DNA from: Phycisphaerae bacterium
GTDB taxonomy: Bacteria > Planctomycetota > Phycisphaerae > JAAYCJ01
Assembly (NCBI GenBank): GCA_012729815.1
Contig: JAAYCJ010000251.1
Span: forward strand, 26,434 to 90,433
DNA: 64,000 nucleotides
Direction: 5' to 3'
A program made the position numbers and the translations under genes. The first letter of the stretch is position 1, and every line of letters begins with the position of its first letter. Shown here in pieces: positions 26,726 through 42,323 of this stretch. The notes beneath the pieces are model-generated. The model had not been told where the DNA came from. It did no database searches and saw only the letters and a program-made list of their open reading frames with translations.

Positions 26726-27607
26726 TTGGAGCAGGCCATTCCAAAAGCCGCAGCCCTCATCGAGGCCCTCGGCTACATCCAGAAGTTCCGCGGCAAGCGA
26801 GTCGTCGTCAAAATGGGCGGAACCCTCATGGACGATCCCAAAGCCGAGGGAAAAATCCTCACCGACGTCCTCTTCATGGCCACCGTCGGTATCCACCCCA
26901 TCGTCGTCCACGGCGGCGGAAAGGAAATCTCCCGAGCCCTCGCCGAATCCGGATTCGAAACCCGCTTCGTCCAGGGCCGACGCTACACCGACAAAAACAC
27001 CCTCACCGTCGCCGAACACATCCTCTGCAACGTCATCAACGCCCGACTCGTCGCCGCCCTCAACCGAATGGGCGGAAAGGCCATGGGACTCCACAGCCTC
27101 TCCAGCGGCGTCCTCTCCGGCGAGCAGGTCTTCCTCCAGGAAGAGGGCCGACGCATCGACGTCGGACTCGTCGGAAAGGTCACCCACGTCAACGCCGAAC
27201 TCCTCCGGGTCCTCTGCAACGCCGGCACCGTTCCCGTCATCGCGCCCATCGCCTACGCCCTCGGCGGCGGAAAGCTCAACGTCAACGCCGATGAAGTCGC
27301 CGGCGAGGTCGCCGCCGCCGTCGCCGCCGATAAGCTCGTCGTCGTCAGCGACACCCACGGCATCCGACGCGACCTGAACGACCCAAACTCACAGATCAGC
27401 GAAGTCACCGGCGCCCAGATCAAACAGCTCATCGACGAAGGCGTCATCAGCGGCGGCATGCTCCCCAAAGTCGCCGCCTGCCTCCGCGCCCTCGAAGGCG
27501 ACGTCGGACGAGCCCACATCATCGACGGACGTATCGACCACGCCCTCCTGCTCGAAATCTACACCGACAAGGGCATCGGCACCCTCATCACTAAAGACAA
27601 ACCATAG
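26726..27607 (+). CDS. argB: Acetylglutamate kinase (TTG start after AGGAG)
   Basis: VVKMGGTLM, IVVHGGG, GRRYTD, NVNAD motifs of NAGK. Confidence 0.9.
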   Translation: MEQAIPKAAALIEALGYIQKFRGKRVVVKMGGTLMDDPKAEGKILTDVLFMATVGIHPIVVHGGGKEISRALAESGFETRFVQGRRYTDKNTLTVAEHILCNVINARLVAALNRMGGKAMGLHSLSSGVLSGEQVFLQEEGRRIDVGLVGKVTHVNAELLRVLCNAGTVPVIAPIAYALGGGKLNVNADEVAGEVAAAVAADKLVVVSDTHGIRRDLNDPNSQISEVTGAQIKQLIDEGVISGGMLPKVAACLRALEGDVGRAHIIDGRIDHALLLEIYTDKGIGTLITKDKP

Positions 27608-27644
27608 CAGGCATTAACAAGCATCACGAGAAACGAGGTATATC

Positions 27645-28862
27645 ATGGACCTGACCACTTCCGACGTTTTGAATCTCTACGCCAAACACGTCATCGCCAA
27701 CTACCGCCGACTCCCCATCGTCATCGTCCGCGCCGAAGGCAACCGAATGTGGGACCTCGACGGAAAGGAATACCTCGACTTCTTCCCCGGCTGGGCCGTC
27801 AGCGGACTCGGTCACTGCCATCCCAAAGTCGTCCAGGCCGTCCAGAAACAGGCCGGTGAGCTTATCCACATCGACAACACCTTCGCCAGCGTCCCCCAGG
27901 CCCGACTCGCCCGGATGCTCTCCGAACGAAGCTTCGGCGGAAAGTGCTTCTTCTGCAACAGCGGCGCCGAAGCCAACGAAGCCGCCCTCAAACTCGCCCG
28001 ACTCAAGGGCGCCGGACAACGCCACAAGATCATCTCCATGGAAAAAAGCTTCCACGGCCGCACCTTCGCCGCCATGACCGCCACCGGACAGGCAAAAACC
28101 CACGCCGGATTCCAGCCCCTCGTCCCCGGTTTCGCCTACGTCCCCTTCAACGACTTCGACGCCCTCGCCGAAGCCGTCGATGACCAGACCGTCGGCGTCA
28201 TCCTCGAACCCATCCAGGGTGAAGGCGGTGTCAACATCGCCGACGCCGAATACCTCCACAAGGTCCGCGACCTCTGCGACCAGCGGGACATGGTCCTGAT
28301 CCTCGACGAGGTCCAGACCGGCATGGGGCGAACCGGAACCTGGTTCGGCTACCAGCAGTACGACGTCGTGCCCGACGTCGTCGTCCTCGCCAAAGCCATC
28401 GGCGGCGGCGTCAGCCTCGGTGCCATCATCGCCAAACCCCAACTCGCCGACCTCATGAAGCCCGGCACCCACGCCTCCACCTTTGGCGGAAACCCCCTCG
28501 CCTGCGCCGCCGGTGTCGCCGTCGTCGAAGCCATCGAAGAAGAAAACCTCCTCCAAGCCGCCACCCAACGAGGCGCCTACCTCCGCCAAAAACTCGAACA
28601 ACTCCAGGAAAAGTACCCCATCATCACCGAGATCCGACAGGTCGGCCTGATGATCGGCGTCGAACTCTCCGTCGCCGGCGATGACATCGTCGCCGCCGCA
28701 CTCGAAAGGGGACTCCGAGTCAACTGCACCCAGCAGACCGTCCTGCGAATGTCGCCCGGCATGACCGTCACCGACGAAATGATCGACCAGGCCGTCGCCA
28801 TCCTCGACGAGTCGTTCGCCCAGTGCCAGAACGGCCTGCTCCAAACGCCGGCGGAGGGCTAA
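27645..28862 (+). CDS. argD: Acetylornithine aminotransferase (class III PLP aminotransferase)
   Basis: ILDEVQTGMGRTG, GGG.SLGA, TFGGNPLA motifs. Lies within the arg operon. Confidence 0.9.
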   Translation: MDLTTSDVLNLYAKHVIANYRRLPIVIVRAEGNRMWDLDGKEYLDFFPGWAVSGLGHCHPKVVQAVQKQAGELIHIDNTFASVPQARLARMLSERSFGGKCFFCNSGAEANEAALKLARLKGAGQRHKIISMEKSFHGRTFAAMTATGQAKTHAGFQPLVPGFAYVPFNDFDALAEAVDDQTVGVILEPIQGEGGVNIADAEYLHKVRDLCDQRDMVLILDEVQTGMGRTGTWFGYQQYDVVPDVVVLAKAIGGGVSLGAIIAKPQLADLMKPGTHASTFGGNPLACAAGVAVVEAIEEENLLQAATQRGAYLRQKLEQLQEKYPIITEIRQVGLMIGVELSVAGDDIVAAALERGLRVNCTQQTVLRMSPGMTVTDEMIDQAVAILDESFAQCQNGLLQTPAEG

Positions 28863-28865
28863 CCC

Positions 28866-29801
28866 ATGCAGCCGATCCGACACTTCATCAACATCCTCGA
28901 CTACGACCGTCCGACCCTCGCGGGCCTCATCGAAAAATCCATCGCCGATAAAAAACGCCTCGCCGCAGGCCCCCTCGACCCCTGCCTCGCCCGCCGAAGC
29001 GTCGCCATCTACATGGAAAAACCCTCCCTCCGAACCCGCGTCAGCTTCGAACTCGCCGTCGTCCAGCTCGGCGGCTATCCCGTTATCCTCAACCACGCCG
29101 AAATCGGACTCGGTGCCCGCGAACCCGTCAAGGACGTCGCCCGAGTCATCTCCCGAATGTGCGACGGCTTCGTCGCCCGAACCTTCAGCCACGAAGCCCT
29201 CGAGGAATTCGCCCGATACGCCTCCGTCCCCGTCGTCAACGCCCTGACCGACTACAGCCACCCCTGCCAGGCCATGGCCGACCTGCTCACCGTCCGCGAA
29301 CGCTTCGGCTCGCTCCAGGGCCTCAAGCTCGCCTACGTCGGAGACGGCAACAACGTCGCCCGATCCCTCGCCGCCCTCTGCGCACGACTCGGCGTCGCCT
29401 TCGCCATCGCCGCCCCACAAGGCTTCCAACTCGAAGACGAATTCGTCCGATCCCTCCGCCAGCGCGCGCCAAACGCCGCCTTCGAACAATCCGACGATCC
29501 GCGCCGCGCCGCCGACGGCGCCCACGTCCTCTACACCGACACCTGGGTCTCCATGGGCCAGGAAAAGGACCGCGAACGCAAGGTCCAGGCCTTCAAGGGC
29601 TTCCAACTCACCGCCGACCTTCTTCGCTCCGCCGCCGACAACGCCGTCGTTATGCACTGCCTCCCCGCCTACCGCGGTATGGAAATCACCGACGAGCTCA
29701 TGGAGTCCCCCCAGTCCGTCGTCTTCGACCAGGCCGAAAACCGACTCCACTTCCAGCGAACCCTCCTCGCCGCACTCATCGGAGGCGAACAAATCGACTG
29801 A
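28866..29801 (+). CDS. argF: Ornithine carbamoyltransferase
   Basis: STRTRVSFE carbamoyl-phosphate motif and HCLPA ornithine-binding motif. Confidence 0.9.
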   Translation: MQPIRHFINILDYDRPTLAGLIEKSIADKKRLAAGPLDPCLARRSVAIYMEKPSLRTRVSFELAVVQLGGYPVILNHAEIGLGAREPVKDVARVISRMCDGFVARTFSHEALEEFARYASVPVVNALTDYSHPCQAMADLLTVRERFGSLQGLKLAYVGDGNNVARSLAALCARLGVAFAIAAPQGFQLEDEFVRSLRQRAPNAAFEQSDDPRRAADGAHVLYTDTWVSMGQEKDRERKVQAFKGFQLTADLLRSAADNAVVMHCLPAYRGMEITDELMESPQSVVFDQAENRLHFQRTLLAALIGGEQID

Positions 29802-29837
29802 CGCCCAGGCACGCGCGGGCTGATCGCCGTCAAAGGA

Positions 29838-30602
29838 TTGAAAATCATGGACATATGGAAGTTCTACGACATCACGCACCGTGAACACCTGATATGCAAT
29901 CCCACCAGCGACGAAAAACTGACCCGTCTCGTGCAACTGTTGCGACTCCCAACCAACGCCCGGGTCGTTGACATCGCCTGTGGTAAGGGCGAATTCCTGA
30001 TTCGCCTGGCGCAAGCCTACGGCGTTCGTGGCATCGGCATCGACGTTTCTCCTTTCGTCATCGCCGAAGCACAGAAAAGGCTCCAAACGCGGGCGCCCAG
30101 TGCCGGCGTCACCTTCACTCAGATGGATGGCGCGGATTACAAGCCGGACGAACCGCACAGCCTCGACCTGGCGTCGTGTATCGGCGCCAGTTGGATCTTC
30201 GGAGGCCACGCCAACACCCTCGAAGCCCTGATCAACATGGTAAAGCCCGGCGGCTGGGTCATCGTCGGAGAGCCGTACTGGCAACAGGAACCCTCAGCGG
30301 AGTACCTTGACGCCCTCGGCTGCGCCCGAGACGACTTCGCCACCCACGCCGCCAATGCCGAAGCCGGAGAAAAGCGGGGAATGGACCTCGTCCACACCAT
30401 CGTCAGCAGCAAGGACGACTGGGACAGCTATGAAGGCCTCCAATGGTTCGCGACCGCCGACTACGCCCGCACCCATCCCGATGACCCCGACCTGCCCGAA
30501 CTGGTCCAACGCGTAAACAAGGCAAAAACGGCATACCTCCGCTGGGGACGCGACACTCTTGGCTGGGCCATCTACATCTTCAGATCGCGCCCCGCCTCCT
30601 GA
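29838..30602 (+). CDS. Class I SAM-dependent methyltransferase
   Basis: Motif I VVDIACGKGEF; motif II/III-like IGIDVS, VKPGGWVIV. Confidence 0.8.
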   Translation: MKIMDIWKFYDITHREHLICNPTSDEKLTRLVQLLRLPTNARVVDIACGKGEFLIRLAQAYGVRGIGIDVSPFVIAEAQKRLQTRAPSAGVTFTQMDGADYKPDEPHSLDLASCIGASWIFGGHANTLEALINMVKPGGWVIVGEPYWQQEPSAEYLDALGCARDDFATHAANAEAGEKRGMDLVHTIVSSKDDWDSYEGLQWFATADYARTHPDDPDLPELVQRVNKAKTAYLRWGRDTLGWAIYIFRSRPAS

Positions 30603-30656
30603 CAAGCGAACAAACGCGACCCCGTAGACCCGGCAGGACGTGTTGCCACCCGCCAA

Positions 30657-30690
30657 AACACACCTTGCCTCTCCCCCAAATCAGCAATCT
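30657..30690. repeat. 34-bp direct repeat R1 copy 1 (AAAACACACCTTGCCTCTCCCCCAAATCAGCAATC)
   Basis: 33/34 identical to 33590..33624. Together they bracket the 703-aa gene and the transposase remnant. Confidence 0.7.
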
Positions 30691-30723
30691 ACAATCAGAA
30701 ATCAGCAATCACTCCCCTCCTCG

Positions 30724-30754
30724 TGTCATCCCCGCGCAGGCGGGGATCCAGACC
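30724..30754. repeat. Solitary CRISPR type I-E-like repeat hairpin (GTGTCATCCCCGCGCAGGCGGGGATCCAGAC); no array, no cas genes in window
   Basis: The stem CCCCGC/GCGGGG with a 4-nt loop and flanking GTGT...GGGGAT closely resembles the E. coli I-E repeat GAGTTCCCCGCGCCAGCGGGGATAAACCG. Only one copy is present. Confidence 0.3.
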
Positions 30755-30921
30755 TCGATGCGAGAACGCAGCGCTAGGCGCCCGAATCAACCCCGTACGC
30801 CATCATCGCAAAAAGCCACCAACGAATTGCCCTTACCCGGTCATACCGAAAAACAGGCGCCGTTGATGCCCGTGTACGAGAACGTCCTGCGGTAATTCGG
30901 AACACTCCCGAATCAAGGTTC

Positions 30922-33033
30922 CTATTCTGTATAGGGCCCGCCGTCGTTCATGGCCATAAGCCGGAGAACCTCTTCAAACTGCGACTTGATCTTCGTCTTC
31001 GCGGTCAGATCCCAGATCGAAACTCCTAACGCCCGCAACCCGAGGATCGCGGGCGTCCAGGCCTGGCCCCACCCGGCCTCGATGCTCCAGGCACCCCAGC
31101 CGAGGTCCGCTGAGCTGCCCCAATATTCCCACATGCGGTAATCGAAGGCCCGAAACCACATGCCGCTCAGGTAGGGGTATCTTTCGGACCGGATTTGGAT
31201 GCGGCACTGGAATTTGGCCAATCGGTCCGCGGCGTCTCTCAGTTTCGGATCACCGGTTACGGCGGCCGCCTCGTGGAGACCCAGCATGGCGAACCCCGTG
31301 CAATAGAGATGATCGCAGACGGGATCGCCGTTCTCCTGGATCAGCGACGCCTCGTCCGTTCCGTAGGCTTCGTTGGACTTCAATGGATAACAGCCGTCCA
31401 TTCGTGTCCGGCATTCGTTGTGTTCCCGAATCGCCCCGCACGGCTGCTGAAGATTCAAAAGATAATCCGTTGCTCGCTTGAGGAACCCCCGATGTTCCGG
31501 CGTATCCTCCGCCCGTACCAGCCAGGCCAGGGCCAGGATCATCCGCGTAAAATCGCCTCCGTCCGTCCAAGGCCGTTCCGACCGGAGGGCCATCACCAGC
31601 TTGATCCCCAGCCGGGCCGTCTCCAGCAACGGTTTATACCCGGTGTGGTGATAAGCCCACAGAAAACAGGCCCACATGTAAGGGTCGCGCTCCGTGCAGG
31701 TATGAAAAGTCGGCTGGTCGTGATAGTACCGCCAGCCGTGTTTCTCGAGATCCGGAATATCCCAGGCACCCTCCAATGTCGTAAAGCTCAGCAATCCATA
31801 CAGCCGATGCGTGGCCAGGATTTCCTTCAGCATCACGGAATCCCATTTGTCCGTTTTCAAACACGCAGCCGCGATCATCGTCGCGATCAACCCTCGAGCT
31901 TCGTCATCGGGATACGTCCGCTTCAGCCATCCTGCCAGGGATTTCCTGTCGCCCCATCCGCCGTCGCCCCATGCCTTCAAGCCGAACGCGGGGTGATTCG
32001 GATCGTCTCTGACTCCCGTGTGCATATTCGACCGAAAATACACGTAGTCGAGAAGATTCTCCGCGATCCTTCGGCTGCGCTCCCGTTTCCGTACCATCCA
32101 ATCGAGCATCAGGACCATCGCGGACTCGCAGTTACAGTCTCCGCGCAAGGGAACCCGCTGTTTGTACTGCGCCCCGTCATAGCGAATGTTCGAGGAATAG
32201 CCTTCCAGCACGCCATACGTTCCATCGCCCACCGGTTCGTTCTCACCCGGCAGGTCGATGGTATCGTCGCTGATGTCCTCGTCGCCGCCGGCAATTCCTG
32301 CAAACCGCTCTTCACTCAACAGCAGCCGCGATCGATCATACCACTCGGCCACCCGCGCAAGGGCCGCGGTTTCCACGTCGGCCGGCAAGCTGTCCTTCGG
32401 GCCGTAGATCGGCCCGATCACCGGAGTCCATCTCAGATCCAAAGCCGTTCCTTCCCCCAGTTGTTTCAGGAGATACTCCCAAATGGTCTTCCACGCCCCG
32501 GCCGGAGCGAACCGCCCGGAAACAAAGCCGGAAAGCCTGCTCGTGATAACCAAGACATTGTCCTTGGCTCTGAAAAGGAGCGGCCAGGTTTCCTCCGGCA
32601 GGCCGAAAACAGCCTTATCATATCCAGCCACCCGCGCGATCACGAGAAGCGGATCGGCGGCCCTCATCGCGACAAAGCGGCAATCGTGCACGGCCAGGAT
32701 CGTCAGGTTCTTCAAGGTGTCTCCGAAATCAGGCGCGGAGACGACCGCCCGCTCCCAGTGGCACCTTCTGACTTCCCCAGCCTCCTGGCCGGGCACAAAC
32801 GATGGAAATTCCACCAACAGTTTCAACCGTTTCTGTTCCGCCAACTGAAATAGTTCTTCGGAGATTTCCGTCCGTGTGGCCGGATACGCATCAGCCAGAA
32901 TCAGTACCCCATCGCCGCTCCGTGCTTTTTCAATCGCCTCCCGCGGAGTGTCATAGCGCGGATAGTCCTTTCCGGACGCGCTCAATACGCAATAAAGATC
33001 ATTCTCGCAGGTCGAGCAGAATACCAGGCTCAT
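30922..33033 (-). CDS. Hypothetical 703-aa protein, probable (alpha/alpha)6-type glycoside-hydrolase-like enzyme; lower GC than flanking genes
   Basis: Long ORF rich in W/Y/H. No signal peptide. Composition and third-position usage are more AT-rich than the host genes. Confidence 0.55.
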   Translation of the reverse strand: MSLVFCSTCENDLYCVLSASGKDYPRYDTPREAIEKARSGDGVLILADAYPATRTEISEELFQLAEQKRLKLLVEFPSFVPGQEAGEVRRCHWERAVVSAPDFGDTLKNLTILAVHDCRFVAMRAADPLLVIARVAGYDKAVFGLPEETWPLLFRAKDNVLVITSRLSGFVSGRFAPAGAWKTIWEYLLKQLGEGTALDLRWTPVIGPIYGPKDSLPADVETAALARVAEWYDRSRLLLSEERFAGIAGGDEDISDDTIDLPGENEPVGDGTYGVLEGYSSNIRYDGAQYKQRVPLRGDCNCESAMVLMLDWMVRKRERSRRIAENLLDYVYFRSNMHTGVRDDPNHPAFGLKAWGDGGWGDRKSLAGWLKRTYPDDEARGLIATMIAAACLKTDKWDSVMLKEILATHRLYGLLSFTTLEGAWDIPDLEKHGWRYYHDQPTFHTCTERDPYMWACFLWAYHHTGYKPLLETARLGIKLVMALRSERPWTDGGDFTRMILALAWLVRAEDTPEHRGFLKRATDYLLNLQQPCGAIREHNECRTRMDGCYPLKSNEAYGTDEASLIQENGDPVCDHLYCTGFAMLGLHEAAAVTGDPKLRDAADRLAKFQCRIQIRSERYPYLSGMWFRAFDYRMWEYWGSSADLGWGAWSIEAGWGQAWTPAILGLRALGVSIWDLTAKTKIKSQFEEVLRLMAMNDGGPYTE

Positions 33034-33036
33034 TCC

Positions 33037-33531
33037 TCATTTCCCTTTCATTCGCTTTTCCAGACCCCGTTTCGACGCACGCAGACAAAAGACCGGGCCT
33101 GCGTCTCCCGGACGGGCAGGGTTTGATATGTTCCACAGAATGTGAGACAAAACGCGGTTCTGATTAAGAGACAGTCTTTCCTCCGGGAACGGGATCCGGC
33201 GTTGTCTGAGTTTAAGGTTTTCCTGTTTCCTCATTTCCCTGGCCGTGGCCAGTTTCCGGCGGCGTTCGGCCTGCATCGCCTCCGGGTTTCCATGATAGTA
33301 ATCGATCGGCCGCAGGAACCCAACGGCCGAGTGCGGACGCTCGTGATTGTAGTGATCGATCACCGCGTCGACCACGCGTTTCGCCTCGCCGATGGTCCCT
33401 TGGCGGCGTTCGAGCTCGGCGTTGTCCGTCGGGGTGTGCGGCCGGATCTCGGTATGGGCGATGCCGGCCTCCTTCAACGTGGCTGCAAAGTCGCCCGAGT
33501 CATGTAGGGTGGATGTTCCTACATCCACCAT
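33037..33531 (-). pseudogene. IS3/IS481-family transposase (rve integrase core) C-terminal fragment; remnant
   Basis: HDSGDFAATLKEAGIAHTEIRPHTPTDNAELERRQGTI matches the integrase D-D-E distal region (tDNGsEF..GI.h...rP.tP.tNg..ER). The N-terminal DDE residues are missing and the C-terminal part reads through into non-homologous sequence. Confidence 0.55.
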
Positions 33532-33589
33532 TTCCTTCTGCCGCCCGTATCGCGAGCTGCCGAGCGCGTAGGGTGTGTTTTCGCCCGCG

Positions 33590-33624
33590 AAAACACACCT
33601 TGTCTCTCCCCCAAATCAGCAATC
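33590..33624. repeat. 34-bp direct repeat R1 copy 2, immediately preceded by a perfect 13-bp inverted repeat (33563..33590)
   Basis: See R1 copy 1. The inverted repeat is GGTGTGTTTTCGC-cc-GCGAAAACACACC. Confidence 0.7.
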
Positions 33625-33870
33625 AACAGCAATTCCCGCTCCCCGCTTGGCGCTCTTGGCGTCCTTGGTGGTTCAACCCCTCCGCTCCCCGCCAAAGGCG
33701 GCTCCAGCCTGACCTCCTGATTTGCTGACTACCCGACCACCTCTCTTCCTCCGCGCCCTCCGCGTGCTCCGTGCAAACCCAAAAACGAACCGCCAACCAC
33801 GCCGCCATCCCCCACCCCCAGCCTTCACATTTTGCATTTTAGTATTTTCTATTTTCACTTTTCATTTCCC

Positions 33871-34057
33871 CTCCGCGTCTCCGCCCCTCGGCGGGCGAAC
33901 GCATTTTGCCTTCAAGGTCCGCCAACGGCGGACCCCTAAAGCCTAAAGCCCAGAGCCTAAAGCCTGCGCAGCCCCCCAACGCACCCTTGCCTCGCAGCCA
34001 AACCCCGGATACCATCATAATCCGGAATCCGCCGCCAACCTTCAACAGCGGCCGGGA
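33871..34057. repeat. About 170-190-bp direct repeat R2 copy 1 (contains 3 tandem copies of CTAAAGCC versus 1 in copy 2)
   Basis: About 90% identical to 36725..36890 (CTCCGCGTCTCCGCCCCTCGGCGGGCGAACGCATTTTGCCTTCAA ... ATCATAATCCGGAATCCGCCGCCAACCTTCAACAGCGGCCGGGA). Confidence 0.8.
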
Positions 34058-34264
34058 CATCTTCGATAGCATCGTATTTCCGGCGTCACGGCAGCCTGCC
34101 GGCGGGTTTCGCCAGCTTCCGGACGAAGAATGTTTGACGCAACGGCGGTTCGGCGGTATGTTTCGCTCTGCAAGCGGCTTCCGTCCAGCAAACGGCAGTT
34201 GTCGTATGATAAAGCGTTCGGCCTCAAGATGGCTGTCGAGTGAAGAAAGGGGAATTGACGTTCT

Positions 34265-36490
34265 ATGTCGACTAAACTGGTGAAAGCGTTCAACGTCACA
34301 GGGGAGGAGCATGCCGACGCCTTCGAGCGATTCGCGAATGCGTTCATGGTCGATGATTATCCCGAGGTGAAGCCACTGGGCGGGAAAAAGGACAAGGGCA
34401 TGGACGCCTACATCTACGACGATGAGGCCGGGAAGGCAACCGTCGTGGTGCAGAGCTGCGTTTCGCCCGCATCGAGGGCACGCACCAAGGTGCTCGGGAC
34501 CATCGAGAAGCTGAAGGACAACGAGCTCCTGCCCGAAGTCTTCGTATACTGCACATCGGACAACGTCGGAACCGATCTAGACGAGACGAAGAAGGAACTC
34601 CGCCGCGACTACAAGGTGGCGCTCAATGTCTGCGACGCCGCTTGGTTCGTCTCCCGCCATCAGACGTCGCAAAACCGCGCCGCCGCCAGCGAAACATACG
34701 CTCGCGAGGTGCTGGAGCCATTCGTCCGCTCCCTCCAACCGGACAAACTCTACAGCCTCGTCCTAAGCGAGACCCAGCAGCGGGTGGCGGTCCAGTACCT
34801 CGAGGCGCTGACCCTCGACCGCGCCAGAGGCGGCAACCTGACGAAGGGCATTTTCGATGCCCTGATCGCGTGCGTCACGCGGGATTCGAACCCGCCGGCC
34901 AAAGCCTACACCGAGGAAGCAATTGTGACAGCTATCTGTGGGATGTTCCCGTCCGGACATGCGGGGCGGATTAAGGAGATCGTGCCGGGCCGCATCCAGC
35001 ACCTCGTCCGCAAGAAGGCACTGCACTTCAACACGCAGGCCGGTGGTTACGTCCTCTCGTTCACGTACCGGGACCGGGTTCAGGGCAATATGCAGAAAGC
35101 TCATGATCGGGAACTGGCATTCTTGGCGGCTCTGGGCGCTGCCGTCAAGCGAGCGGGGGACGATCTGAAGGTGGATTACCAGTTCTCAACCGAGAAAGTC
35201 GTCGAGATCGGGCACCAAGCCGTGCTGTGGTACCTGCGTGAGCAGGGCAAGGCGGTCAGTGACCCGACGTCGGCTCTGCTCAACATCCTGAACGCGGAGA
35301 GGCTCGTCGAGGAGTTCTTGAAGCAGCACCCGCTTTCCAACCCCACCACGAAGGCACCGCTCACCAGTGAGCAAGTCATGGACCTGCTCCCGCCCGCCCT
35401 CTTCGTCACACTCAATACGAAGGACGAGGAGGTGCGGAAGTACCTACGGGGCAAGGCGGACCTGTTCATCGTCCATGGCTTCTTGCAGGTGACGCCGGAC
35501 GTCCAGGATGCGTGCCGCAAGCTCCTCGGGGGCGACGTCCTTTACTTGGACACAACCGTCCTGATTCGCTGCCTCGCTGAACATTACTCCACAGGCGACC
35601 GGAGGCCGCTTCTGGATACCCTCGAAGGGGCGAAGCGGGTGGGCTACCAGTTGCGGACGTGGTGGCCCTACATTGGGGAGCTTGTGTCGCACCTGCGGAA
35701 CCGCGTCCAACAGGAGTGGGCCAACCACTACCGTATCCGCAGCCCCGAAGTTCTGGCAGTGCTTCTACCCACGGCCCGGACCCTGGTCCGCGTGTTCTGC
35801 GAGCGTGCTAAGGCAGATGGAGGATCGCTGCCGGACATCGTGGATGAAATCCTCGGTACGACGAACGAACGAGAGAACGCCGTGGAGTTTCTCAAGGAGG
35901 TATTCGGCATTGAGACTGAGGACTTGCCGTCGCTCGACGGGGACGACCAGGAGGTTCGTGATCGAGCCCACTCGCTCTGGTCGAAGACCAAGCGCCGGCC
36001 CGAGAATGTTCCGGAAGACCGCTTCAGGATTCTCGTTGATAACGACGTCAACTCTTACGTCTCAATCATCCGCTTGCGGCGTACTCAGAAGACGCACGGG
36101 CCGAACTACGGCCACAAGATATGGTATTTGACCCTCGACCGCATGCCTTGGCGCATCGCGGGGATGATGTCGCAGAGGCGTGAGCCGAAGTACGAAGTGG
36201 CGATGAGCTTCAGTTACTTGATGAACTGCGTTGCCACGATCGCCATTACCGGCCAGGTCAACATCCCAGAAGAGCTGATCCCGGCCACCACGATCCTCGA
36301 AGAGGCAGAAATGGTTCCCGGCGAGATCCGAGCCGTGTACGAGAAGGATGTCAAGCCCACGGACAAGCCGTTCCTTCTGGTCAGGAAGGTGCGCGACTTG
36401 ACACATAAACTCAAATCGAGCAAGCCGATGCAGGTTGAGCCGCTGGATGCCGAAGACTATCTGGATTTGACGGTCGAGGAAGGTATTTGA
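34265..36490 (+). CDS. Orphan 741-aa hypothetical protein between the R2 repeats; function unknown (speculatively a defence/abortive-infection-type or selfish-element protein)
   Basis: Uninterrupted ORF. GC and codon usage are more AT-rich than the host. No P-loop. The N-terminal about 100 aa (GGKKDKGMDAYIYDDEAGKATVVVQSC) are loosely reminiscent of REase-fold (Mrr/NERD-like) cores, but the conserved Lys is not evident. A possible Rx4H (RRTQKTH) occurs near the C-terminus. Confidence 0.65.
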   Translation: MSTKLVKAFNVTGEEHADAFERFANAFMVDDYPEVKPLGGKKDKGMDAYIYDDEAGKATVVVQSCVSPASRARTKVLGTIEKLKDNELLPEVFVYCTSDNVGTDLDETKKELRRDYKVALNVCDAAWFVSRHQTSQNRAAASETYAREVLEPFVRSLQPDKLYSLVLSETQQRVAVQYLEALTLDRARGGNLTKGIFDALIACVTRDSNPPAKAYTEEAIVTAICGMFPSGHAGRIKEIVPGRIQHLVRKKALHFNTQAGGYVLSFTYRDRVQGNMQKAHDRELAFLAALGAAVKRAGDDLKVDYQFSTEKVVEIGHQAVLWYLREQGKAVSDPTSALLNILNAERLVEEFLKQHPLSNPTTKAPLTSEQVMDLLPPALFVTLNTKDEEVRKYLRGKADLFIVHGFLQVTPDVQDACRKLLGGDVLYLDTTVLIRCLAEHYSTGDRRPLLDTLEGAKRVGYQLRTWWPYIGELVSHLRNRVQQEWANHYRIRSPEVLAVLLPTARTLVRVFCERAKADGGSLPDIVDEILGTTNERENAVEFLKEVFGIETEDLPSLDGDDQEVRDRAHSLWSKTKRRPENVPEDRFRILVDNDVNSYVSIIRLRRTQKTHGPNYGHKIWYLTLDRMPWRIAGMMSQRREPKYEVAMSFSYLMNCVATIAITGQVNIPEELIPATTILEEAEMVPGEIRAVYEKDVKPTDKPFLLVRKVRDLTHKLKSSKPMQVEPLDAEDYLDLTVEEGI

Positions 36491-36724
36491 CTTTCAAACC
36501 TTTCATTCTCGCATATGACTAACTGGGATCGACGCCATTCCCGCCATTCAGGATCGAAGGATCGGGGATCGAAACGGGGACGCAGCTAGTTTTCGCGTCA
36601 TTCAAAACAGTCACCCGTTTTCGAACTTCCCCTTGCCCAGCCGCGGCAGCGTGCGAAGCAACCGGCGTCAGGTCCTGAACGTTTACTTCTCAACCCGCTC
36701 CCTTCGCAATCTTCCGTCCAAACC

Positions 36725-36890
36725 CTCCGCGTCTCCGCCCCTCGGCGGGCGAACGCATTTTGCCTTCAACGTCCGCCAAAGGCGGACTCCTAAAGCCTCC
36801 GCAGCCGCCCAACACACCCTTGCCTCACAGCCAGACCCCGGATACCATCATAATCCGGAATCCGCCGCCAACCTTCAACAGCGGCCGGGA
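36725..36890. repeat. Direct repeat R2 copy 2 (forms the native promoter/leader of rph)
   Basis: See R2 copy 1. It ends at GCGGCCGGGA, 30 nt before the rph ATG. Confidence 0.8.
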
Positions 36891-36920
36891 GTTTTCGCTG
36901 AAACCAACCGGAGGCCCTCA

Positions 36921-37640
36921 ATGGCCACAAAACGACATGACGGACGCAAACCCGACCAGCTTCGCGACCTGCGCATCCTCCGCCGCTACACCCGCTACGC
37001 CGGCGGAAGCGTCCTGATCGCCACCGGCCAAACCCAGGTCCTCTGCACCGCCTTCGCCGAACCCGGCGTGCCTGCCTGGCTCGAAGGAGCCGGCAAGGGT
37101 TGGCTCACCGCTGAGTACGGCATGCTCCCCTCCAGCACGCCCCAGCGAAAGCGACGCCCCGAACGCACCGACGGCCGCGCCCAGGAAATCCAACGCCTCA
37201 TCGGCCGATCCCTCCGCGCCGTCCTCGACCTGGCCAGAATGCCCGACCTGACCATCGCCGTCGACTGCGACGTCCTCCAAGCCGACGGCGGAACCCGAAC
37301 CGCCGCCGTCACCGGGGCCTACGTCGCCCTCGTCGACGCCGTCCGCAACGCCCTCGAGCGCGGCCTGATCGCTCAGAACCCCATCACCGGAGCCGTCGCC
37401 GCCGTCTCCGCGGGCATCGTCGACGGCCGCATCCTCCTCGACCTCGACTACGTCGAAGACAGCTCAGCCGAGCTCGACTTCAACGTCGTCATGACCGATC
37501 GCGGCCAATTCGTCGAAGTCCAGGGAACCGCTGAGAAAGAACCCTTCGACCGCATCCAACTGGATACAATTCTCAAAACAGCCGGAAAAGGCATCCGCCG
37601 GCTCATCAAAGCCCAGAAAGACGCGCTGAAGGAGAAATGA
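36921..37640 (+). CDS. rph: Ribonuclease PH
   Basis: RPDGR-like start (HDGRKPDQLR). GGSVLIATGQTQVLCTA, TAEYGMLP, DCDVLQADGGTRTA motifs. GGAGG RBS. Confidence 0.9.
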   Translation: MATKRHDGRKPDQLRDLRILRRYTRYAGGSVLIATGQTQVLCTAFAEPGVPAWLEGAGKGWLTAEYGMLPSSTPQRKRRPERTDGRAQEIQRLIGRSLRAVLDLARMPDLTIAVDCDVLQADGGTRTAAVTGAYVALVDAVRNALERGLIAQNPITGAVAAVSAGIVDGRILLDLDYVEDSSAELDFNVVMTDRGQFVEVQGTAEKEPFDRIQLDTILKTAGKGIRRLIKAQKDALKEK

Positions 37641-38419
37641 TGCACACCCGACCAACCCGCTTCACCGTCGCCGTCCTCGCCCTGACCGCACTGGCGTCTC
37701 TTGCCGGTTGCCAGCAGCAACTGGGCCGCCAGGGCGACTGGCAGATCGTCCTCAAACGATTCGTCGGCCCCGACCGCACCCGCAGCGCCCAATGGTTCCA
37801 CGACTCCCTGAAGGTCTCACGCGGCATCGACCCCGCCAAAATCGCCGTCACCCACAGCGACGAGGTCACCCTCCTGACCTACGGCTCATACAACAACCCC
37901 CAGTCCCAGCAGGCTCAGAAAGACCTCGCCTTCATCAAGGGTCTCGGCGTCCGCGATCAGGGCTACCTCTTCCTCGACGCCCACCTCGAACCCATCCCCG
38001 AACCCGACCCGCCCATCCTCGCCTCCTGGCGGCTCATCAACAGCGGCGGCTACTGGACACTCGAAATCGCCCGCTTCGATGAACCCGGCCACAAAAAAGC
38101 CGCCGTCGAACTCGTCCAATACCTCCGAACCGAAAAGAAAACACCCGCCTACGTCTACCACGCCGCCAACCGAAGCCTCGTCACCGTCGGAGCCTTTCCC
38201 GAAGACGCCATCCAAGCCGGCGGCGGACGACGAGGACCCGTCATCGGCATGAAGCCCGTCGTCACCGACCCGGACCTTAAGCGCTGGCAAAACGAGTTTC
38301 CCTACCTGATCGTCAACGGAACCTATATCGATCTGAAGGCCCCAAAAGACGATAAGAAGGAAATCCGAATGCCCAGCAAAATCATGCGGGTCCCCGACCC
38401 GTCAGGGAGCAACTGGTAG
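37637..38419 (+). CDS. Hypothetical lipoprotein (lipobox LAGC). The ATGA start overlaps the rph stop.
   Basis: Signal peptide plus lipobox. No recognisable domain. Confidence 0.6.
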   Translation: MMHTRPTRFTVAVLALTALASLAGCQQQLGRQGDWQIVLKRFVGPDRTRSAQWFHDSLKVSRGIDPAKIAVTHSDEVTLLTYGSYNNPQSQQAQKDLAFIKGLGVRDQGYLFLDAHLEPIPEPDPPILASWRLINSGGYWTLEIARFDEPGHKKAAVELVQYLRTEKKTPAYVYHAANRSLVTVGAFPEDAIQAGGGRRGPVIGMKPVVTDPDLKRWQNEFPYLIVNGTYIDLKAPKDDKKEIRMPSKIMRVPDPSGSNW

Positions 38420-38449
38420 CCGTTTACTGTCAGCAAAGGAGGATGACGA

Positions 38450-39808
38450 ATGCCATTGATCATCAGCGTCTCCGGGATGCGCGGTTTCGTCGGGTCCGAT
38501 CTGGGCGCCCCCGAGGCGCTGAAAGTCGGCCGAATCTACGGCCGACTCGCCGCCAACGATGGCAAACCCTTCGTCGTCGCCAGTGACAGCCGAATCAGCA
38601 GCGACGCCCTCCGTTCCGCCGTCATCGCTGGGCTCCTCGCCGCTGGGGCCGACGTGATTGACATCGGCGTCGCCGCCACTCCGACCGCCTGCCTGACCGT
38701 CCGCCGGCACGCCGCCGCCGGTGGCGTCATCGTCACCGCGTCCCATAACCCCATTCAGTGGAACGGGATAAAACTCATCGGCCCCGACGCCCTCGCCGTC
38801 GACGCCCAGCGGGCCGAGCAGATCAAAACCGCCTTCCACCAGGACCCGCCCGAACACGCCTCCGCCACCGAATGCGGACGCCTCAAACGCGACGACCAGG
38901 CCCATCAAACCCACGTCCAAGCCGTCCTGGCCGCTTCGGACCCCAGGTTGATCGACGACCTGCGCTACCGCAAGGTCAAGGTCGTCCTCGACAGCATCAA
39001 CGGCGCCGGCGCCCACGCCGGAACCATGCTTCTTAATGCCCTTGGCTGCGAGGTTTGTGGCCTCAACGCCGAACCGACCGGCCGATTCGCCCATACCCCC
39101 GAACCCATCCCGGAAAACCTCACCAGCCTGTGTCAGGAAGTAACCCGTCAAGGCGCGCAGGTGGGTTTTGCCCAGGATCCCGACGCCGATCGTCTGGCTC
39201 TGGTCGATGAGACCGGCCGGTGCATCGGCGAGGAATACACGCTGGCCCTGGCGGCGTGGGCCGTGCTGGCCCATCGCGCAGGTCCTTTGGCGACAAACCT
39301 TTCCACGTCGCGCATGGTCGATGACGTGGCCCAATGGTTCGGCCAGAAGGTCATCCGCACCCCGGTCGGCGAGGCCCACGTCGCGCGGGCTGTGATGCAG
39401 AACAATTGCCCGGTCGGGGGCGAAGGCAACGGCGGGGTGATCGTGCCGGATGTGGTGCCGGTCCGCGATTCGCTTTCGGCGATGGCTTTGGTGTTGCAGC
39501 TTATGGTCAGCCGGAGCAAGACGATTTCACAGCTCGTGTCCGAACTCCCGAAATACCAGATGGTTAAGGCGAAGTTCGAGTGCTCGCGGGAGAAGGCGGC
39601 CCAGGTGTGCCAGAGGTTAGTACAGAAATACGCCGATCAGAAGATCGACACCGCCGACGGCGTCCGGATCGACTTTCCGGATGAACGGGCGTGGGTCCAC
39701 ATCCGTCCCAGCAACACCGAGCCGATCATCCGGATCATCGCGGAGGCCCGCGATCAGGCCCGCGCCGACGAGCTGGTTGACATGCTGGCGGCGGAGACGG
39801 GCCGGTGA
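38450..39808 (+). CDS. glmM: Alpha-D-phosphohexomutase (phosphoglucosamine mutase / phosphomannomutase family)
   Basis: Active-site TASHNP. Metal-binding DPDADR. Sugar-binding GEEY-like motif (CIGEEYTLAL). Confidence 0.8.
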   Translation: MPLIISVSGMRGFVGSDLGAPEALKVGRIYGRLAANDGKPFVVASDSRISSDALRSAVIAGLLAAGADVIDIGVAATPTACLTVRRHAAAGGVIVTASHNPIQWNGIKLIGPDALAVDAQRAEQIKTAFHQDPPEHASATECGRLKRDDQAHQTHVQAVLAASDPRLIDDLRYRKVKVVLDSINGAGAHAGTMLLNALGCEVCGLNAEPTGRFAHTPEPIPENLTSLCQEVTRQGAQVGFAQDPDADRLALVDETGRCIGEEYTLALAAWAVLAHRAGPLATNLSTSRMVDDVAQWFGQKVIRTPVGEAHVARAVMQNNCPVGGEGNGGVIVPDVVPVRDSLSAMALVLQLMVSRSKTISQLVSELPKYQMVKAKFECSREKAAQVCQRLVQKYADQKIDTADGVRIDFPDERAWVHIRPSNTEPIIRIIAEARDQARADELVDMLAAETGR

Positions 39809-39926
39809 TTGTAATTTGTCATACAACCATATCATCATACAAATCACGCCAATCGGGCGGTGGACGAACCGCATCGATTCTGTTAAACTAAACTGATAAA
39901 GGCCAAACCACCGAGGAGACAGTACC

Positions 39927-40280
39927 ATGTCGGACGGAATAAAACCCGAGATCAATTTCGAGCAATTTGCCGCCATTGACCTCCGCGTCGCGAAGGTCGT
40001 TGAGGCATCGGAACACCCGAATGCAGATAAACTGATGGTTCTGAAGCTGGACTTGGGCGAGTTGGGCGAGCGTCAGATCGTCGCCGGGATCAAGCAGTAC
40101 TATCGGCCGGAGGAGCTGGTGGGCAAGCTGATCGCGGTGGTGGCGAATCTGGCGCCGCGGACGATGCGCGGCGTTGAGAGTCGGGGCATGTTGCTGGCTG
40201 GGGTGGAAGGGGAACCGACGACGAACGTGGTGGTGATGAGTTTGGATCGTCCGGTAGCGCCGGGTTCGCGGATCAGTTAG
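39927..40280 (+). CDS. csaA: tRNA-binding protein (CsaA/Trbp111, EMAP-like OB fold)
   Basis: IDLRVAKVVEASEHPNADKLMVLKLDLGE...RQIVAGI is the canonical tRNA_bind domain. Confidence 0.8.
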   Translation: MSDGIKPEINFEQFAAIDLRVAKVVEASEHPNADKLMVLKLDLGELGERQIVAGIKQYYRPEELVGKLIAVVANLAPRTMRGVESRGMLLAGVEGEPTTNVVVMSLDRPVAPGSRIS

Positions 40281-40340
40281 GGTTCGGCCGGCGTAGAATA
40301 TACAGACGAGGCCCAAGTCGTTTTTGGGAGCAGGCACGGC

Positions 40341-42323
40341 ATGAATCGCGGTTTGTATCTCGCAGCGGTCGCGTTGGTTGGTGCGGTCTGGTGTATCGGC
40401 GGCTGCGAGAATCCGTATCTGTACACGGGCATTCAGAAGGAGCAGGTGGCGGCGCTGACGGTGAGTCCGGCGGGCGGGACGGTATTTACGGATCAGGTTG
40501 AGGTGGTGCTGGCGACGCAGACGGAAGGTGCGAGGATCCGGTACACGACGGACGGGGTGACGATGCCGGGTCCGGACAGCGCCGTGTACGACGAGCCGAT
40601 CGTTTTGACGGAGACGACGACGATCATCGCCCGCGGGTACAAGGACGAGTTGATGCCGACGCCGGCGGTGACGCTCAAGTACATCCGCGAGGCGGTCGGC
40701 CAGGCGGCGGCGCCGACGTTCAGTCCGGAAGCGAGGGGATTCGGCGACACGCTTGAGGTGACGCTATCGACGGCGACGGCAGGGGCGACGATTTACTACA
40801 CGACGGACGGGAGCACGCCGGACGCCGATTCCGAGGAGTACGATTCGGCGATCCTGCTGAACGCGACGACGACGATCTCGGCGATCGCGATGTTGGACGG
40901 GATGAGCGACAGCGAGGTGGCGACGGCGACGTACACGCTGAACGAACTGGACGACGTGGCGGATCCGACGTTCGATCCGGCGGGCGGGCCGTTCCGCGAG
41001 TCCGTGTCGGTGGCGCTTGGGTGCGCGACCGACGGCGCGGCGATCCGCTACACGCTTGACGGGAGCGATCCGAACGCGAGCAGCGCGGAGTACGCGGAGG
41101 CGATCGAGCTGACGGCGACGACGACGATCAAGGCGGCGGCGTTCAAGGACGGGATGAACCCCAGCGATATTGTTTCGCAGACGTATACGCGCAACGACAT
41201 CGAGCAGGCAGAGACGCCGGAGATCACGCCGGTCTTGACGGATTTCACCGACACGGTGGAGGTGACGATGTCGGTGGAGACGCTGGATACGGTGATCCGG
41301 TACACGCTGGACGGGTCGGATCCGGGCGAGGCGAGCACGGAGTACACGGCGCCGATCACGCTGAGCGCCACGACGACGATCAAGGCGCGGGCGTTTTTGG
41401 AGGGGGCGGATCCGAGCGAGGTGGCGAGCCGGACGTATACGAAGCTGGCGATACCGGAGTACGAGTTCGTGCTGACGTGGGGCAGCCGCGGAGAGGGGCT
41501 TGAGCCGGCGGACGGGGAGTTCGGGATTATCGAGGACGTGACGCTGGGCCCGGACGAGGACGAGATCTACGTAACCGACGCGCTGACCAGCCGCATCCAG
41601 GTTTTCGACCCGCAAGGGACGTTCCTGCGGAAGTGGGGGGCGGTTGGCGAGGGACCTGGGCAGTTCGTAACCGCGTGGGGCATTGCGGTGGATTCGACCA
41701 GCCAGGTTTACGTGGCGGACGGCGGCAACAAGCGTGTTCAGAAGTTCAGTTCGACCGGGTCGTTTCTGGACCAGTGGCGCGAGTTTGGCGGCGATCCGGG
41801 GGTGTTCGCCACGCCGACGGGGGTGGACATCGATTCGGAAGGGAACATTTACGTCGCCGACCAGGGCGGCATGATTCACAAGTTTGACAGCCAGATGCAG
41901 TTTGTGACGCAATGGGGCGGCAAGGGGGCGGCTGAGGGCGAGTTCGATATGCCGGGCAACATGGCGTTCGATTCGGCGGGCAACGTGTACGTTCCGGACC
42001 GGAATAACCACCGCGTTCAGAAGTTCAGCAGCGACGGGGAGTTTCTGGCGGCGTGGGGTACGGAGGGTTCGGCGGCGGAGCAGTTCAATGAGCCATCGGC
42101 GGCGGCTGTCGACTCGGAGGGGCGGGTCTACGTGGTGGACTCGAAGAACCACCGGGTTCAGGTTTTCGCGGCGAGCGGCGTTTACCTGACGTCATTTGGG
42201 ACCGAAGGGGATGGCGACGGTGAATTCGACGATCCTGAGAGCATCGCGATCGACTCGGACGACATCCTCTACATCACCGACAGCGGGAATGCGCGGGTGC
42301 AGAAGTTCCGCGTGGCGCGTTAG
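40341..42323 (+). CDS. Lipoprotein with five chitobiase/hexosaminidase-C-like (CHB_HEX_C) repeats followed by an NHL-repeat beta-propeller
   Basis: Lipobox IGGC. Five repeats of IRYTTDGS.P...S..Y..PI.L..TTTIKA.A. Six YVAD..N.RVQKF-type NHL blades. Confidence 0.75.
   Translation: MNRGLYLAAVALVGAVWCIGGCENPYLYTGIQKEQVAALTVSPAGGTVFTDQVEVVLATQTEGARIRYTTDGVTMPGPDSAVYDEPIVLTETTTIIARGYKDELMPTPAVTLKYIREAVGQAAAPTFSPEARGFGDTLEVTLSTATAGATIYYTTDGSTPDADSEEYDSAILLNATTTISAIAMLDGMSDSEVATATYTLNELDDVADPTFDPAGGPFRESVSVALGCATDGAAIRYTLDGSDPNASSAEYAEAIELTATTTIKAAAFKDGMNPSDIVSQTYTRNDIEQAETPEITPVLTDFTDTVEVTMSVETLDTVIRYTLDGSDPGEASTEYTAPITLSATTTIKARAFLEGADPSEVASRTYTKLAIPEYEFVLTWGSRGEGLEPADGEFGIIEDVTLGPDEDEIYVTDALTSRIQVFDPQGTFLRKWGAVGEGPGQFVTAWGIAVDSTSQVYVADGGNKRVQKFSSTGSFLDQWREFGGDPGVFATPTGVDIDSEGNIYVADQGGMIHKFDSQMQFVTQWGGKGAAEGEFDMPGNMAFDSAGNVYVPDRNNHRVQKFSSDGEFLAAWGTEGSAAEQFNEPSAAAVDSEGRVYVVDSKNHRVQVFAASGVYLTSFGTEGDGDGEFDDPESIAIDSDDILYITDSGNARVQKFRVAR

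Follow-up and report, generated by a model that had tools for sequence, protein, structure and literature searches.

The window analysed here is a stretch of 64,000 nucleotides from a Phycisphaerae bacterium. It contains an open reading frame (ORF) for a protein of 741 amino acids, placed between two long direct repeats (a1 and a2) in the region separating argF from rph. The features of the locus are collected in Table 1. A preliminary description, made before any database had been searched, had pointed out the ORF, the bracketing repeats, an IS remnant near the gene and the position of rph directly downstream. All four are real; the IS remnant is a transposase fragment of the rve_3 type, and the true start of rph is the ATG at position 36921. 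Short-read contigs coming from both sides end inside the IS fragment, which implies that the IS is present in several copies in the genome.

Table 1. Features at the argF-rph region of the window (positions are those of the 64,000-nucleotide stretch)
Feature	Position	Strand	Remarks
Extra stretch, 7.1 kb, between argF and rph	29802..36920		Missing in the two nearest relatives
Second direct repeat, copy b1, 59 nt	30635..30693	+	86% identical to b2; hairpin; unrelated to a
Truncated transposase	33037..33531	-	C-terminal rve_3 part only
Second direct repeat, copy b2	33570..33628	+	Brackets, with b1, the 703-aa gene and the IS fragment
Direct repeat copy 1 (a1), 189 nt	33869..34057	+	Three short hairpins, extra heptamer units
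Tandem CCTAAAG/CTAAAGCC array	33935..33965	+	TRF, 4.4 units; explains why a1 is 21 nt longer than a2
Candidate sigma-70-like promoter, TTGACG-17-TATGTT	34134..34162	+	Called from its match to the consensus alone; ~100 nt before the ORF
ORF for the 741-aa protein	34265..36490	+	Restriction endonuclease, winged-helix, helical and PIN regions
Mrr/FokI/MspJI-like PD-(D/E)xK-fold domain	34265..34657	+	aa 1-131; conserved E21, D43, D47, Q63-x-(S/C)65, K75
Winged helix-turn-helix	34832..35059	+	aa ~190-265; three helices and a beta wing
Long helical region	35060..35524	+	aa 266-420; without fold assignment; may act as a scaffold or in oligomerisation
VapC-like PIN domain with helical inserts	35525..36424	+	aa ~421-720
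Direct repeat copy 2 (a2), 168 nt	36723..36890	+	30 nt separate its end from the rph start codon
rph (RNase PH, 239 aa)	36921..37640	+	First gene of a conserved block of rph, a 260-aa gene and pgm

In the two nearest relatives the gene order is argB-argD-argF-rph, and the start of rph overlaps the stop of argF; these relatives are distant, with an RNase PH identity of 65%. In the window this synteny is broken by the extra 7.1 kb, which holds a methyltransferase gene, the 703-aa gene, the IS fragment, a1, the 741-aa gene and a2. Since argF and rph overlap in the relatives, both repeat copies lie inside extra DNA. This is at odds with the earlier view that a2 is the native leader of rph: the relatives have no leader at all, and the a repeat is, judged from these gene orders, probably not an ancestral leader of rph. 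The idea of a large, single, accessory gene that moves horizontally and lies next to an IS remnant in a zone of insertions is supported. The 741-aa gene is absent from the argF-rph junction of both distant relatives, and so is the a repeat; an empty site with a clean junction and a single a copy was not found, all same-species contigs carrying the gene. When RNase PH and ArgF were looked up by exact sequence, every contig recovered had the same architecture. A search of genome contigs with the 260-aa neighbour gave nothing, and with RNase PH the best match was 62% identical. The next RNase PH is just 67% identical, and the collections searched hold no sister species.

Between the two copies of the a repeat there are 8 substitutions and a single 21-nt indel; outside the indel they are ~95% identical (85.7% with it). 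Their boundaries are sharp. Both core sequences occur at these two places only in the 64 kb, where 0 occurrences are expected by chance. The extra CCTAAAG/CTAAAGCC units of copy 1 were described correctly, but the array could not be confirmed as a variable tandem repeat, as the six same-species contigs covering copy 1 show no indel there. A structured RNA in the repeat was considered and rejected: a scan against Rfam gave only a chance-level match to rmf (20.9 vs 45 bits, E 0.93) and the z-score of the fold is just -2.8. An integron attC site or cassette was rejected as well; the repeat forms three small hairpins and not one long imperfect palindrome, the ORF is 200-230 nt away from each repeat, and there is no integron integrase. 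A 22-mer of the repeat, scanned against metagenomes, was found only in a contig of the same strain which is chimeric at its 3' end, and the repeat has no match in IMG/VR viral contigs or in plasmids. A separate observation is that the copies have diverged by ~5% with no recombinase gene between them (only the truncated DDE transposase is nearby, outside the repeats), which speaks against a duplication generated by the insertion.

The 741-aa protein had been called an orphan. This is not so: 55 homologues (40-80% identity) and 701 cluster representatives (50% identity) were found, and the protein is an intact member of a widespread, uncharacterised and unnamed family of ~720-745 residues, with members as far apart as Phycisphaerae, Pseudomonas and E. 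coli plasmids. With a dN/dS of ~0.14 against its homologues the gene is under purifying selection. The protein has no full-length match in PADLOC, Pfam or NCBIfam, and nothing useful came from the PDB (sequence and profile searches), NCBIfam or PHROGs. The defence HMMs of PADLOC-DB v2.0.0 gave partial N-terminal matches; a full-length match to a system protein was not among them. A phage origin was rejected, since neither 50,697 phage records searched by tblastn nor IMG/VR gave a match.

An AlphaFold model of the protein (pLDDT 81.6, pTM 0.79) and the conservation of residues in 112 full-length members, with a median identity of 21% to the window protein, define the architecture. The protein contains two nuclease folds with conserved acidic residues, where the preliminary description had seen no recognisable enzymatic motif. 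It had rightly noted a resemblance of the N-terminus to restriction endonucleases: the alpha-beta-beta-beta-alpha-beta core fold is present, and E21 (94%), D43 (97%), D47 (99%), Q63 (99%) and K75 (100%) are conserved in the 112 members. Pfam sees little of this, the match to Mrr_cat (PF04471) being 13.4 bits, below the gathering cut-off of 21, and occurring weakly in just 4 of 36 family members. Within the catalytic triad D47 and Q63 are conserved, and the position of the canonical lysine is taken by serine (94%) or cysteine, with K75 10 residues further on. From the alignment K75 might be a stand-in for the missing lysine; as it is no more than a candidate for this role, the domain could also be one that binds DNA without cutting it.

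The C-terminal region has the alpha/beta/alpha fold of PIN domains, with the D-E-D-D acidic residues at the expected positions of the secondary structure (ends of strands and starts of helices). These residues, D429 (99%), E472 (100%), D594 (100%) and D625 (96% of the 112 members), are invariant or nearly so, together with H476, R605, W620, R707 and R710. The E. coli plasmid homologue, which is only 19% identical, keeps all of E21, D43, D47, Q63 and K75 and the four acidic residues of the PIN domain. Pfam PIN families gave no match in any of the 36 members, even at E values up to 0.1. When the domain was compared with known PIN domains the closest were VapC toxins, and Nob1, Utp24 and Rrp44 were also among the matches. 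An Rx4H motif noted earlier near the C-terminus is part of this PIN domain; no HEPN fold was found.

The homologues are always solo genes and their context is different each time. Even homologues 74-77% identical sit in unrelated contexts, and the DNA similarity between the window and the homologue loci is limited to the ORF. The family is mobile and its neighbourhoods are rich in defence genes. Among the contexts are AbiEi/AbiEii with conjugation genes; an SNF2 helicase with DUF1156 and DUF499; an integrase with AbiE and PLD-helicases; a P4-like island with DUF4365; a Gabija-like OLD ATPase with UvrD, and a methylase; an integrase with type IV secretion genes; clusters of HicAB, VapBC and MNT toxin-antitoxin genes; and enterobacterial IncF plasmids, where the gene lies beside toxin-antitoxin and IS genes. 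In a qualitative count every one of the 10 contexts includes genes of defence or toxin-antitoxin systems, integrases, conjugation or IS elements; in 9 of the 10 such a gene lies within a few genes of the homologue, and tyrosine integrases often adjoin it. The E. coli homologue was found in 5 of 5426 complete E. coli genomes, on plasmids every time. In the 5 loci measured the GC content of the homologue gene is below that of its locus (5/5, by 0.05-0.12). No small neighbour gene, such as a VapB-like antitoxin, is conserved across eight metagenome and genome contexts or in the window, and no SMC or ABC ATPase adjoins the gene in the window or at the homologue loci. Two enterobacterial plasmids have in common a 146-aa gene of unknown function upstream of the homologue.

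In the window itself the composition tells another story than the one first proposed, a lower GC content with AT-richer third positions. GC3 of the 741-aa gene is 0.787, to be compared with 0.800 for rph, 0.797 for the 260-aa gene and 0.714 for the 703-aa gene; only GC2 is low (0.388). Of the other 45 genes in the window, 43 deviate more in codon usage. GC3 and codon usage are thus host-like, and composition gives no sign of a recent transfer here. The gene is fixed in every same-species contig sampled, with no presence/absence polymorphism seen; taken together with the host-like codon usage this means that it behaves like a long-resident gene.

An anti-phage or selfish-element role, as suggested in the preliminary description, is credible given how often the homologues have defence genes, toxin-antitoxin genes and genes of mobile elements around them. 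The reading we lean towards, with some reservation, is that the 741-aa protein is a single-gene system against phages or other mobile elements, carried as cargo in an insertion zone and bracketed by duplicative repeats; function, trigger, substrates and the origin of the repeats are all inferred. The gene is a stand-alone accessory cargo that moves between genomes via defence islands, integrative and conjugative elements, satellites and plasmids, and it would have landed here in the 7.1-kb zone that split an ancestral argF-rph junction, leaving a2 where rph needs a promoter or leader of its own. The protein may be auto-inhibited at rest. The winged-helix/restriction-endonuclease part, or the helical scaffold, would recognise nucleic acid or protein of the invader, and one or both nucleases would then cut: the restriction-endonuclease domain the invader DNA, the PIN domain tRNA, rRNA or mRNA, leading to translation arrest (abortive infection). 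A more specific version, in which recognition of invader DNA licenses cleavage of tRNA or rRNA, a Type IV-like sensor/nuclease with its winged helix being coupled to a VapC-like RNase, is speculative and we rather doubt it. It would make the protein a fused restriction-plus-abortive-infection switch without a separate antitoxin or NTPase.

The prediction of a defence function has also been made by others. The E. coli homologue WP_016156503.1 is among the top unvalidated defence predictions of DefensePredictor; it occupies the 12th row of the uncharacterised clusters in Table S10, a sheet in descending order of mean log-odds, with a log-odds of 14.2 (PMC13092281). It is absent from Table S6, the list of cloned candidates (PMC13092281). 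Our literature search found no paper mentioning this accession, nor a description of a single-gene system with restriction-endonuclease, winged-helix and PIN parts.

The solo gene could instead be a selfish addiction or toxin module, that is, a fused and self-restrained VapC-like toxin which stabilises the elements carrying it and is not an immune gene. The closeness of its PIN domain to VapC toxins and the toxin-antitoxin pairs and mobile-element genes that often adjoin the homologues agree with this, as does the lack of a conserved antitoxin gene beside the family gene. However, the window has no intact mobile element to stabilise, yet the gene is intact and under purifying selection, and the additional restriction-endonuclease and winged-helix domains point to sensing of nucleic acids. 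We regard this explanation as improbable, and it should be kept in mind that the boundary between toxin-antitoxin and defence systems is blurred anyway. A cellular enzyme of nucleic-acid processing or repair, such as a structure-specific DNA nuclease whose PIN domain resembles that of flap endonucleases, in which case the patchy distribution would be incidental, appears very improbable to us. It would account for the host-like codon usage and the fixation in the species, and both folds are known from enzymes of repair and RNA maturation (Nob1, Utp24, Rrp44). Against it stand the sporadic distribution without conserved synteny, the absence of the gene at the same site in relatives, its rarity and plasmid location in E. 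coli, the low GC of the homologue genes relative to their loci, and the dominance of defence and mobile-element genes in the neighbourhoods.

The simplest reading of a1 and a2 is an insertion footprint, left when the segment bearing the gene entered by a duplicative event (Campbell-type or att-like). The repeats might also have nothing to do with an insertion and be two copies of a genome-wide intergenic REP/MITE-like element or a duplicated promoter/leader module retained by selection; the bracketing of the gene would then be coincidence or regulation. Repeated intergenic elements are characteristic of this region, given the unrelated pair b1/b2 that brackets the neighbouring module. The substitutions between a1 and a2 are located in a loop and in flanks with the hairpins conserved, and constraint is suggested by the identity of the outer 46 nt and of the outer 57 nt. 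Furthermore, rph needs a promoter once the arg operon is lost, and a weak -35/-10-like pair, TTGCCT-17-TACCAT, can be read by eye in both copies. On the other hand, the promoter scan called no site inside the repeat, just two copies are present in 64 kb and these flank exactly one gene, the repeat lacks terminal inverted repeats and is not matched by Rfam, and, the same-strain contig aside, the scans of metagenomes, IMG/VR and plasmids did not find it. We consider this alternative to the footprint rather unlikely. As a secondary reading, the two adjacent modules, each within its own long direct repeat, may reflect an undescribed route of cassette insertion in Phycisphaerae.

If the proposed anti-invader function is confirmed, a widespread stand-alone defence protein with an apparently undescribed architecture will have been added, and a DefensePredictor cluster that ranks among the highest-scoring unvalidated ones now has structural content. 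The combination of a DNA-type and an RNA-type nuclease in one protein raises the question of which one is the sensor and which one does the killing. With homologues in E. coli and Pseudomonas the function is directly testable, and the candidate catalytic residues for mutation are defined. The repeat-bracketed modules at the broken arg-rph operon provide a small concrete case for the insertion of accessory genes in planctomycete chromosomes.

The architecture of the family appears to be new, and single-protein nuclease defence candidates are already a known class. Menshen NsnC was rejected as a relative, its PIN-like domains being inactive and its architecture unrelated, and so were HEC-03 and HEC-09, whose architectures are different. 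The restriction-endonuclease effector modules of Lamassu LmuA, Avs4 and the partners of short Argonautes act together with LmuB (an SMC-like ATPase), with a STAND NTPase or with an Argonaute as sensor, whereas the 741-aa protein has no LmuB-, STAND NTPase- or Argonaute-like partner or domain; the PADLOC match to LmuA covers only aa 17-111. Compared to the PD-(D/E)xK domains of the Mrr/Type IV and MspJI-AspBHI-FokI type (PF04471), the family has serine or cysteine for the motif lysine, with the invariant K75 ten residues later. The nuclease lies at the N-terminus of a polypeptide that also contains a PIN domain, and no modification-reading domain (SRA, PUA, DUF3427) was found in the family. It differs from VapC toxins in its PIN domain of ~300 aa with helical inserts, fused to ~420 aa of other domains, and from VapBC systems in having no conserved adjacent VapB-like antitoxin gene and no Pfam PIN match. 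Upx is similar in being a stand-alone defence gene with two nuclease domains in one polypeptide; these are both PD-(D/E)xK domains, whereas the family combines one such domain with a PIN domain (PMC13099982). The PADLOC scan of the 741-aa protein gave no match to Upx. DS-3, which comes from DefensePredictor and has been validated in E. coli as a PIN defence system made up of one protein, has been proposed to be auto-inhibited until infection (PMC13092281). The 741-aa family enters that paper only through the unvalidated prediction WP_016156503.1; compared by description, DS-3 and the family are alike in being single proteins that contain a PIN ribonuclease and lack a cognate antitoxin (PMC13092281).

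The 741-aa gene is a genuine, intact and mobile accessory gene, and its family has a restriction-endonuclease, winged-helix and PIN architecture. A role against phages or mobile elements is, in our view, somewhat more likely than not; that the protein would work by a specific sensing followed by cleavage is a less certain proposition. The preliminary description stands in part, in observation as in interpretation: the mobile accessory gene and the repeat around it were right, the orphan status and the shift in composition were not, and a downstream copy that is the native leader of rph is not supported.

The protein is no orphan: in a word-indexed search it had 55 homologues at 40-80% identity, nearly all of 729-747 aa and including proteins from Pseudomonas fragi and Stutzerimonas; none of the 55 has a Pfam domain. 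A profile search covering 1.84 billion cluster representatives gave 701 at E ≤1e-3 and 222 at E ≤1e-30, mostly full length. A distant full-length homologue, labelled hypothetical protein, is found on eight enterobacterial plasmids (21% identity at 94% coverage, E 1e-29); among 5426 complete E. coli genomes five have it, on plasmids in every case. Searches of phage genomes and of IMG/VR gave no homologue. The dN/dS against homologues with 76-77% identity is ~0.14, and the protein is therefore under purifying selection. The composition of the ORF (GC 0.601, GC3 0.787) is not shifted: GC3 is 0.800 in rph, 0.797 in the 260-aa gene and 0.714 in the 703-aa gene, GC2 (0.388) is the only low value, and in a comparison of 46 window genes 43 of the 45 others deviate more from the pooled codon usage.

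Matches to sequence libraries were weak and confined to the N-terminus: Pfam Mrr_cat below threshold (E 0.087), PADLOC LmuA at aa 17-111 (E 3.5e-4) and an Argonaute-associated restriction-endonuclease model, Aga_REase (E 3.5e-3), the latter two being matched in 12 and 16 of 36 family members, respectively. NCBIfam, PHROGs and PDB, searched by sequence or profile, gave nothing. The domain layout was drawn from predicted secondary structure (see the table), and conservation was read from an alignment of 112 full-length members, whose median identity to the window protein is 21%. In the restriction-endonuclease domain E21 is conserved in 94%, D43 in 97%, D47 and Q63 in 99% and K75 in 100%; in the PIN domain D429 is conserved in 99%, E472 and D594 in 100% and D625 in 96%. 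H476, R605, W620, R707 and R710 are also conserved, and the E. coli plasmid homologue, at 19% identity, retains all these residues. The PIN site looks catalytically competent, the canonical D-E-D-D set being placed at strand ends as expected. In the restriction-endonuclease site, a variant, the lysine of the usual D...QxK is S or C; K75, invariant and located in the following helix, may substitute for it.

Ten genomic contexts of the family were examined; all were different, the gene was solo in each, and DNA similarity to homologue loci ends at the ORF ends. The neighbours include AbiEi/AbiEii with a YhcG-like nuclease and TraG/DUF4141 conjugation genes; an SNF2 helicase with DUF1156 and DUF499; a tyrosine integrase with AbiEi/AbiEii, helicases and a PLD-helicase-DUF3427 protein; a P4-like island in P. 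fragi with integrase, AlpA, DUF927 primase and a DUF4365 neighbour; a Stutzerimonas island with a Gabija-like OLD ATPase and UvrD helicase, a methylase, DUF4145 and a giant helicase; an integrase and type IV secretion element; toxin-antitoxin clusters with HicAB, VapBC-like and MNT genes; and two IncF plasmids with RelB, RES, IS1, IS3 and a TrlF ATPase close by. In every homologue locus measured the gene has a lower GC than the locus (0.42 vs 0.53 in P. fragi, 0.435 vs 0.553 in Stutzerimonas). On the two IncF plasmids, one from E. coli and one from K. pneumoniae, a conserved 146-aa gene (WP_016156504.1) lies 5' of the homologue and the TrlF-family ATPase 3' of it.

In the two nearest relatives (~65% RNase PH identity) the order is argB-argD-argF-rph followed by a 262- or 273-aa gene, after which pgm comes directly in one of the two, and argF and rph overlap, stop with start. 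The argF of the window stops at 29801, 7.1 kb before rph, and the arg-rph operon is broken into 26726-29801 and 36921-39808 by accessory DNA containing a SAM-dependent methyltransferase, the 703-aa gene, the IS fragment, the first repeat copy (a1), the 741-aa gene and the second copy (a2).

Features of the insertion zone (nt of the window) and of the 741-aa protein (aa)
Feature	Position	Remarks
b1	30635-30693	59 nt, 86% identical to b2, hairpin
703-aa gene	30922-33033	minus strand; further accessory gene
rve_3-only transposase fragment	33037-33531	minus strand
b2	33570-33628	59 nt, hairpin GGTGTGTTTTCG-CCCG-CGAAAACACACC
a1	33869-34057	
CCTAAAG/CTAAAGCC tandem array in a1	33935-33965	TRF
ORF, 741 aa	34265-36490	between a1 and a2
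a2	36723-36890	
RNase PH start ATG	36921	30 nt past a2
Restriction-endonuclease domain	aa 1-131	predicted secondary structure
Winged helix	aa ~190-265	predicted secondary structure
Long helices	aa 266-420	predicted secondary structure
PIN domain with helical inserts	aa ~421-720	predicted secondary structure

Among 5.8 billion proteins the next closest RNase PH is 67% identical, so there is no sister species for comparison; GTDB species representatives reach 62% at most. Same-species contigs, eight picked by exact RNase PH and ten by exact ArgF, share 99.7-99.9% identity and the same architecture with the window and have no indels. This makes the 741-aa gene fixed in the population as sampled: presence/absence polymorphism, proposed as a check, was not seen, none of these contigs has an empty site, and the heptamer array in a1, thought to be variable, is not. 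The IS remnant beside the ORF was correctly recognized, and since short-read contigs end inside it from both sides (33214-33582) the IS is multicopy in the genome. Among the same-species contigs there are 0 variable sites from a1 through rph (33869-37640, 3.8 kb), and within 38450-42323 there are 24 clustered sites in pgm (15 synonymous, 9 non-synonymous) and 7 in the 660-aa gene; the contrast could stem from a sweep that took the island recently or from recombination tracts confined to core genes, with the caveat that an exact RNase PH protein was the basis on which these contigs had been picked. A further contig, 1759 nt long and from ERZ747221 (window 36181-37535), is 99.9% identical until rph codon ~205, followed by a different rph 3' end and an RdgB/HAM1-like gene; with a coverage of 1.9 it is probably a chimeric assembly.

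The direct repeat around the ORF is real. Eight substitutions and one 21-nt indel distinguish its copies, the indel being additional CCTAAAG/CTAAAGCC units in a1; the edges are sharp, and at the outer ends 46 nt and 57 nt are identical. A 50-nt AT-rich tract, CACATTTTGCATTTTAGTATTTTCTATTTTCACTTTTCATTTC (33820-33868), adjoins the left edge of a1 in a genome of 63% GC, and a promoter-like site is called inside it on the minus strand (33865 to 33836). The rph frame is open for 96 codons 5' of the real ATG (36633-36920), across a2, and a TTG start in an ORF caller could over-extend rph to 335 aa.

The simplest mechanism for the repeat is duplicative insertion: a circular segment with a copy of the target would integrate by a single crossover or an att-type event, and the ~5% divergence would reflect age or copies that never were identical. 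Counting against it, there is no recombinase gene between a1 and a2, and no empty site is known. That a2 is the ancestral rph leader is unsupported, as the 7.1 kb are missing from the (distant) relatives and both copies thus lie in DNA which these lack. Alternatively, and on 64 kb of genome still plausibly, the copies could belong to a dispersed intergenic repeat or be a duplicated promoter/leader module. In favour of this, the substitutions spare hairpin stems and rph now requires its own promoter; against it, the repeat has no Rfam family, the sole site called in a promoter scan (34134-34162) is outside it, and only two copies exist in the 64-kb window, where each of two core sequences occurs at a1 and a2 only (0 expected by chance).

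A second, unrelated pair of repeats, b1 and b2, each with a strong hairpin, flanks the 703-aa gene and the IS fragment at a spacing of 2935 nt, close to the 2854 nt of a1 and a2. The insertion zone therefore consists of two modules, each with its own direct repeat. The only match of the 703-aa protein is GH127 beta-L-arabinofuranosidase-like and sub-threshold (E 0.014).

The E. coli homologue WP_016156503.1 is included in Table S10 of DefensePredictor (Science 2026, PMC13092281) as 'Putative novel defense gene', at row 12 of the uncharacterised-cluster sheet sorted by descending mean log-odds (14.2); the only homology given is to Avs4A over 19% of the length. It is in neither Table S6 (cloned candidates) nor the other supplementary tables checked. 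On the Klebsiella plasmid a nearby 557-aa gene (WP_000026497.1) is also among the top unvalidated predictions of the same study (log-odds 14.7). A literature search found no description of the restriction-endonuclease/winged-helix/PIN architecture. Single-protein nuclease defence candidates are numerous, and the 741-aa family, which has been flagged computationally before, is one of them and not a categorically new system.
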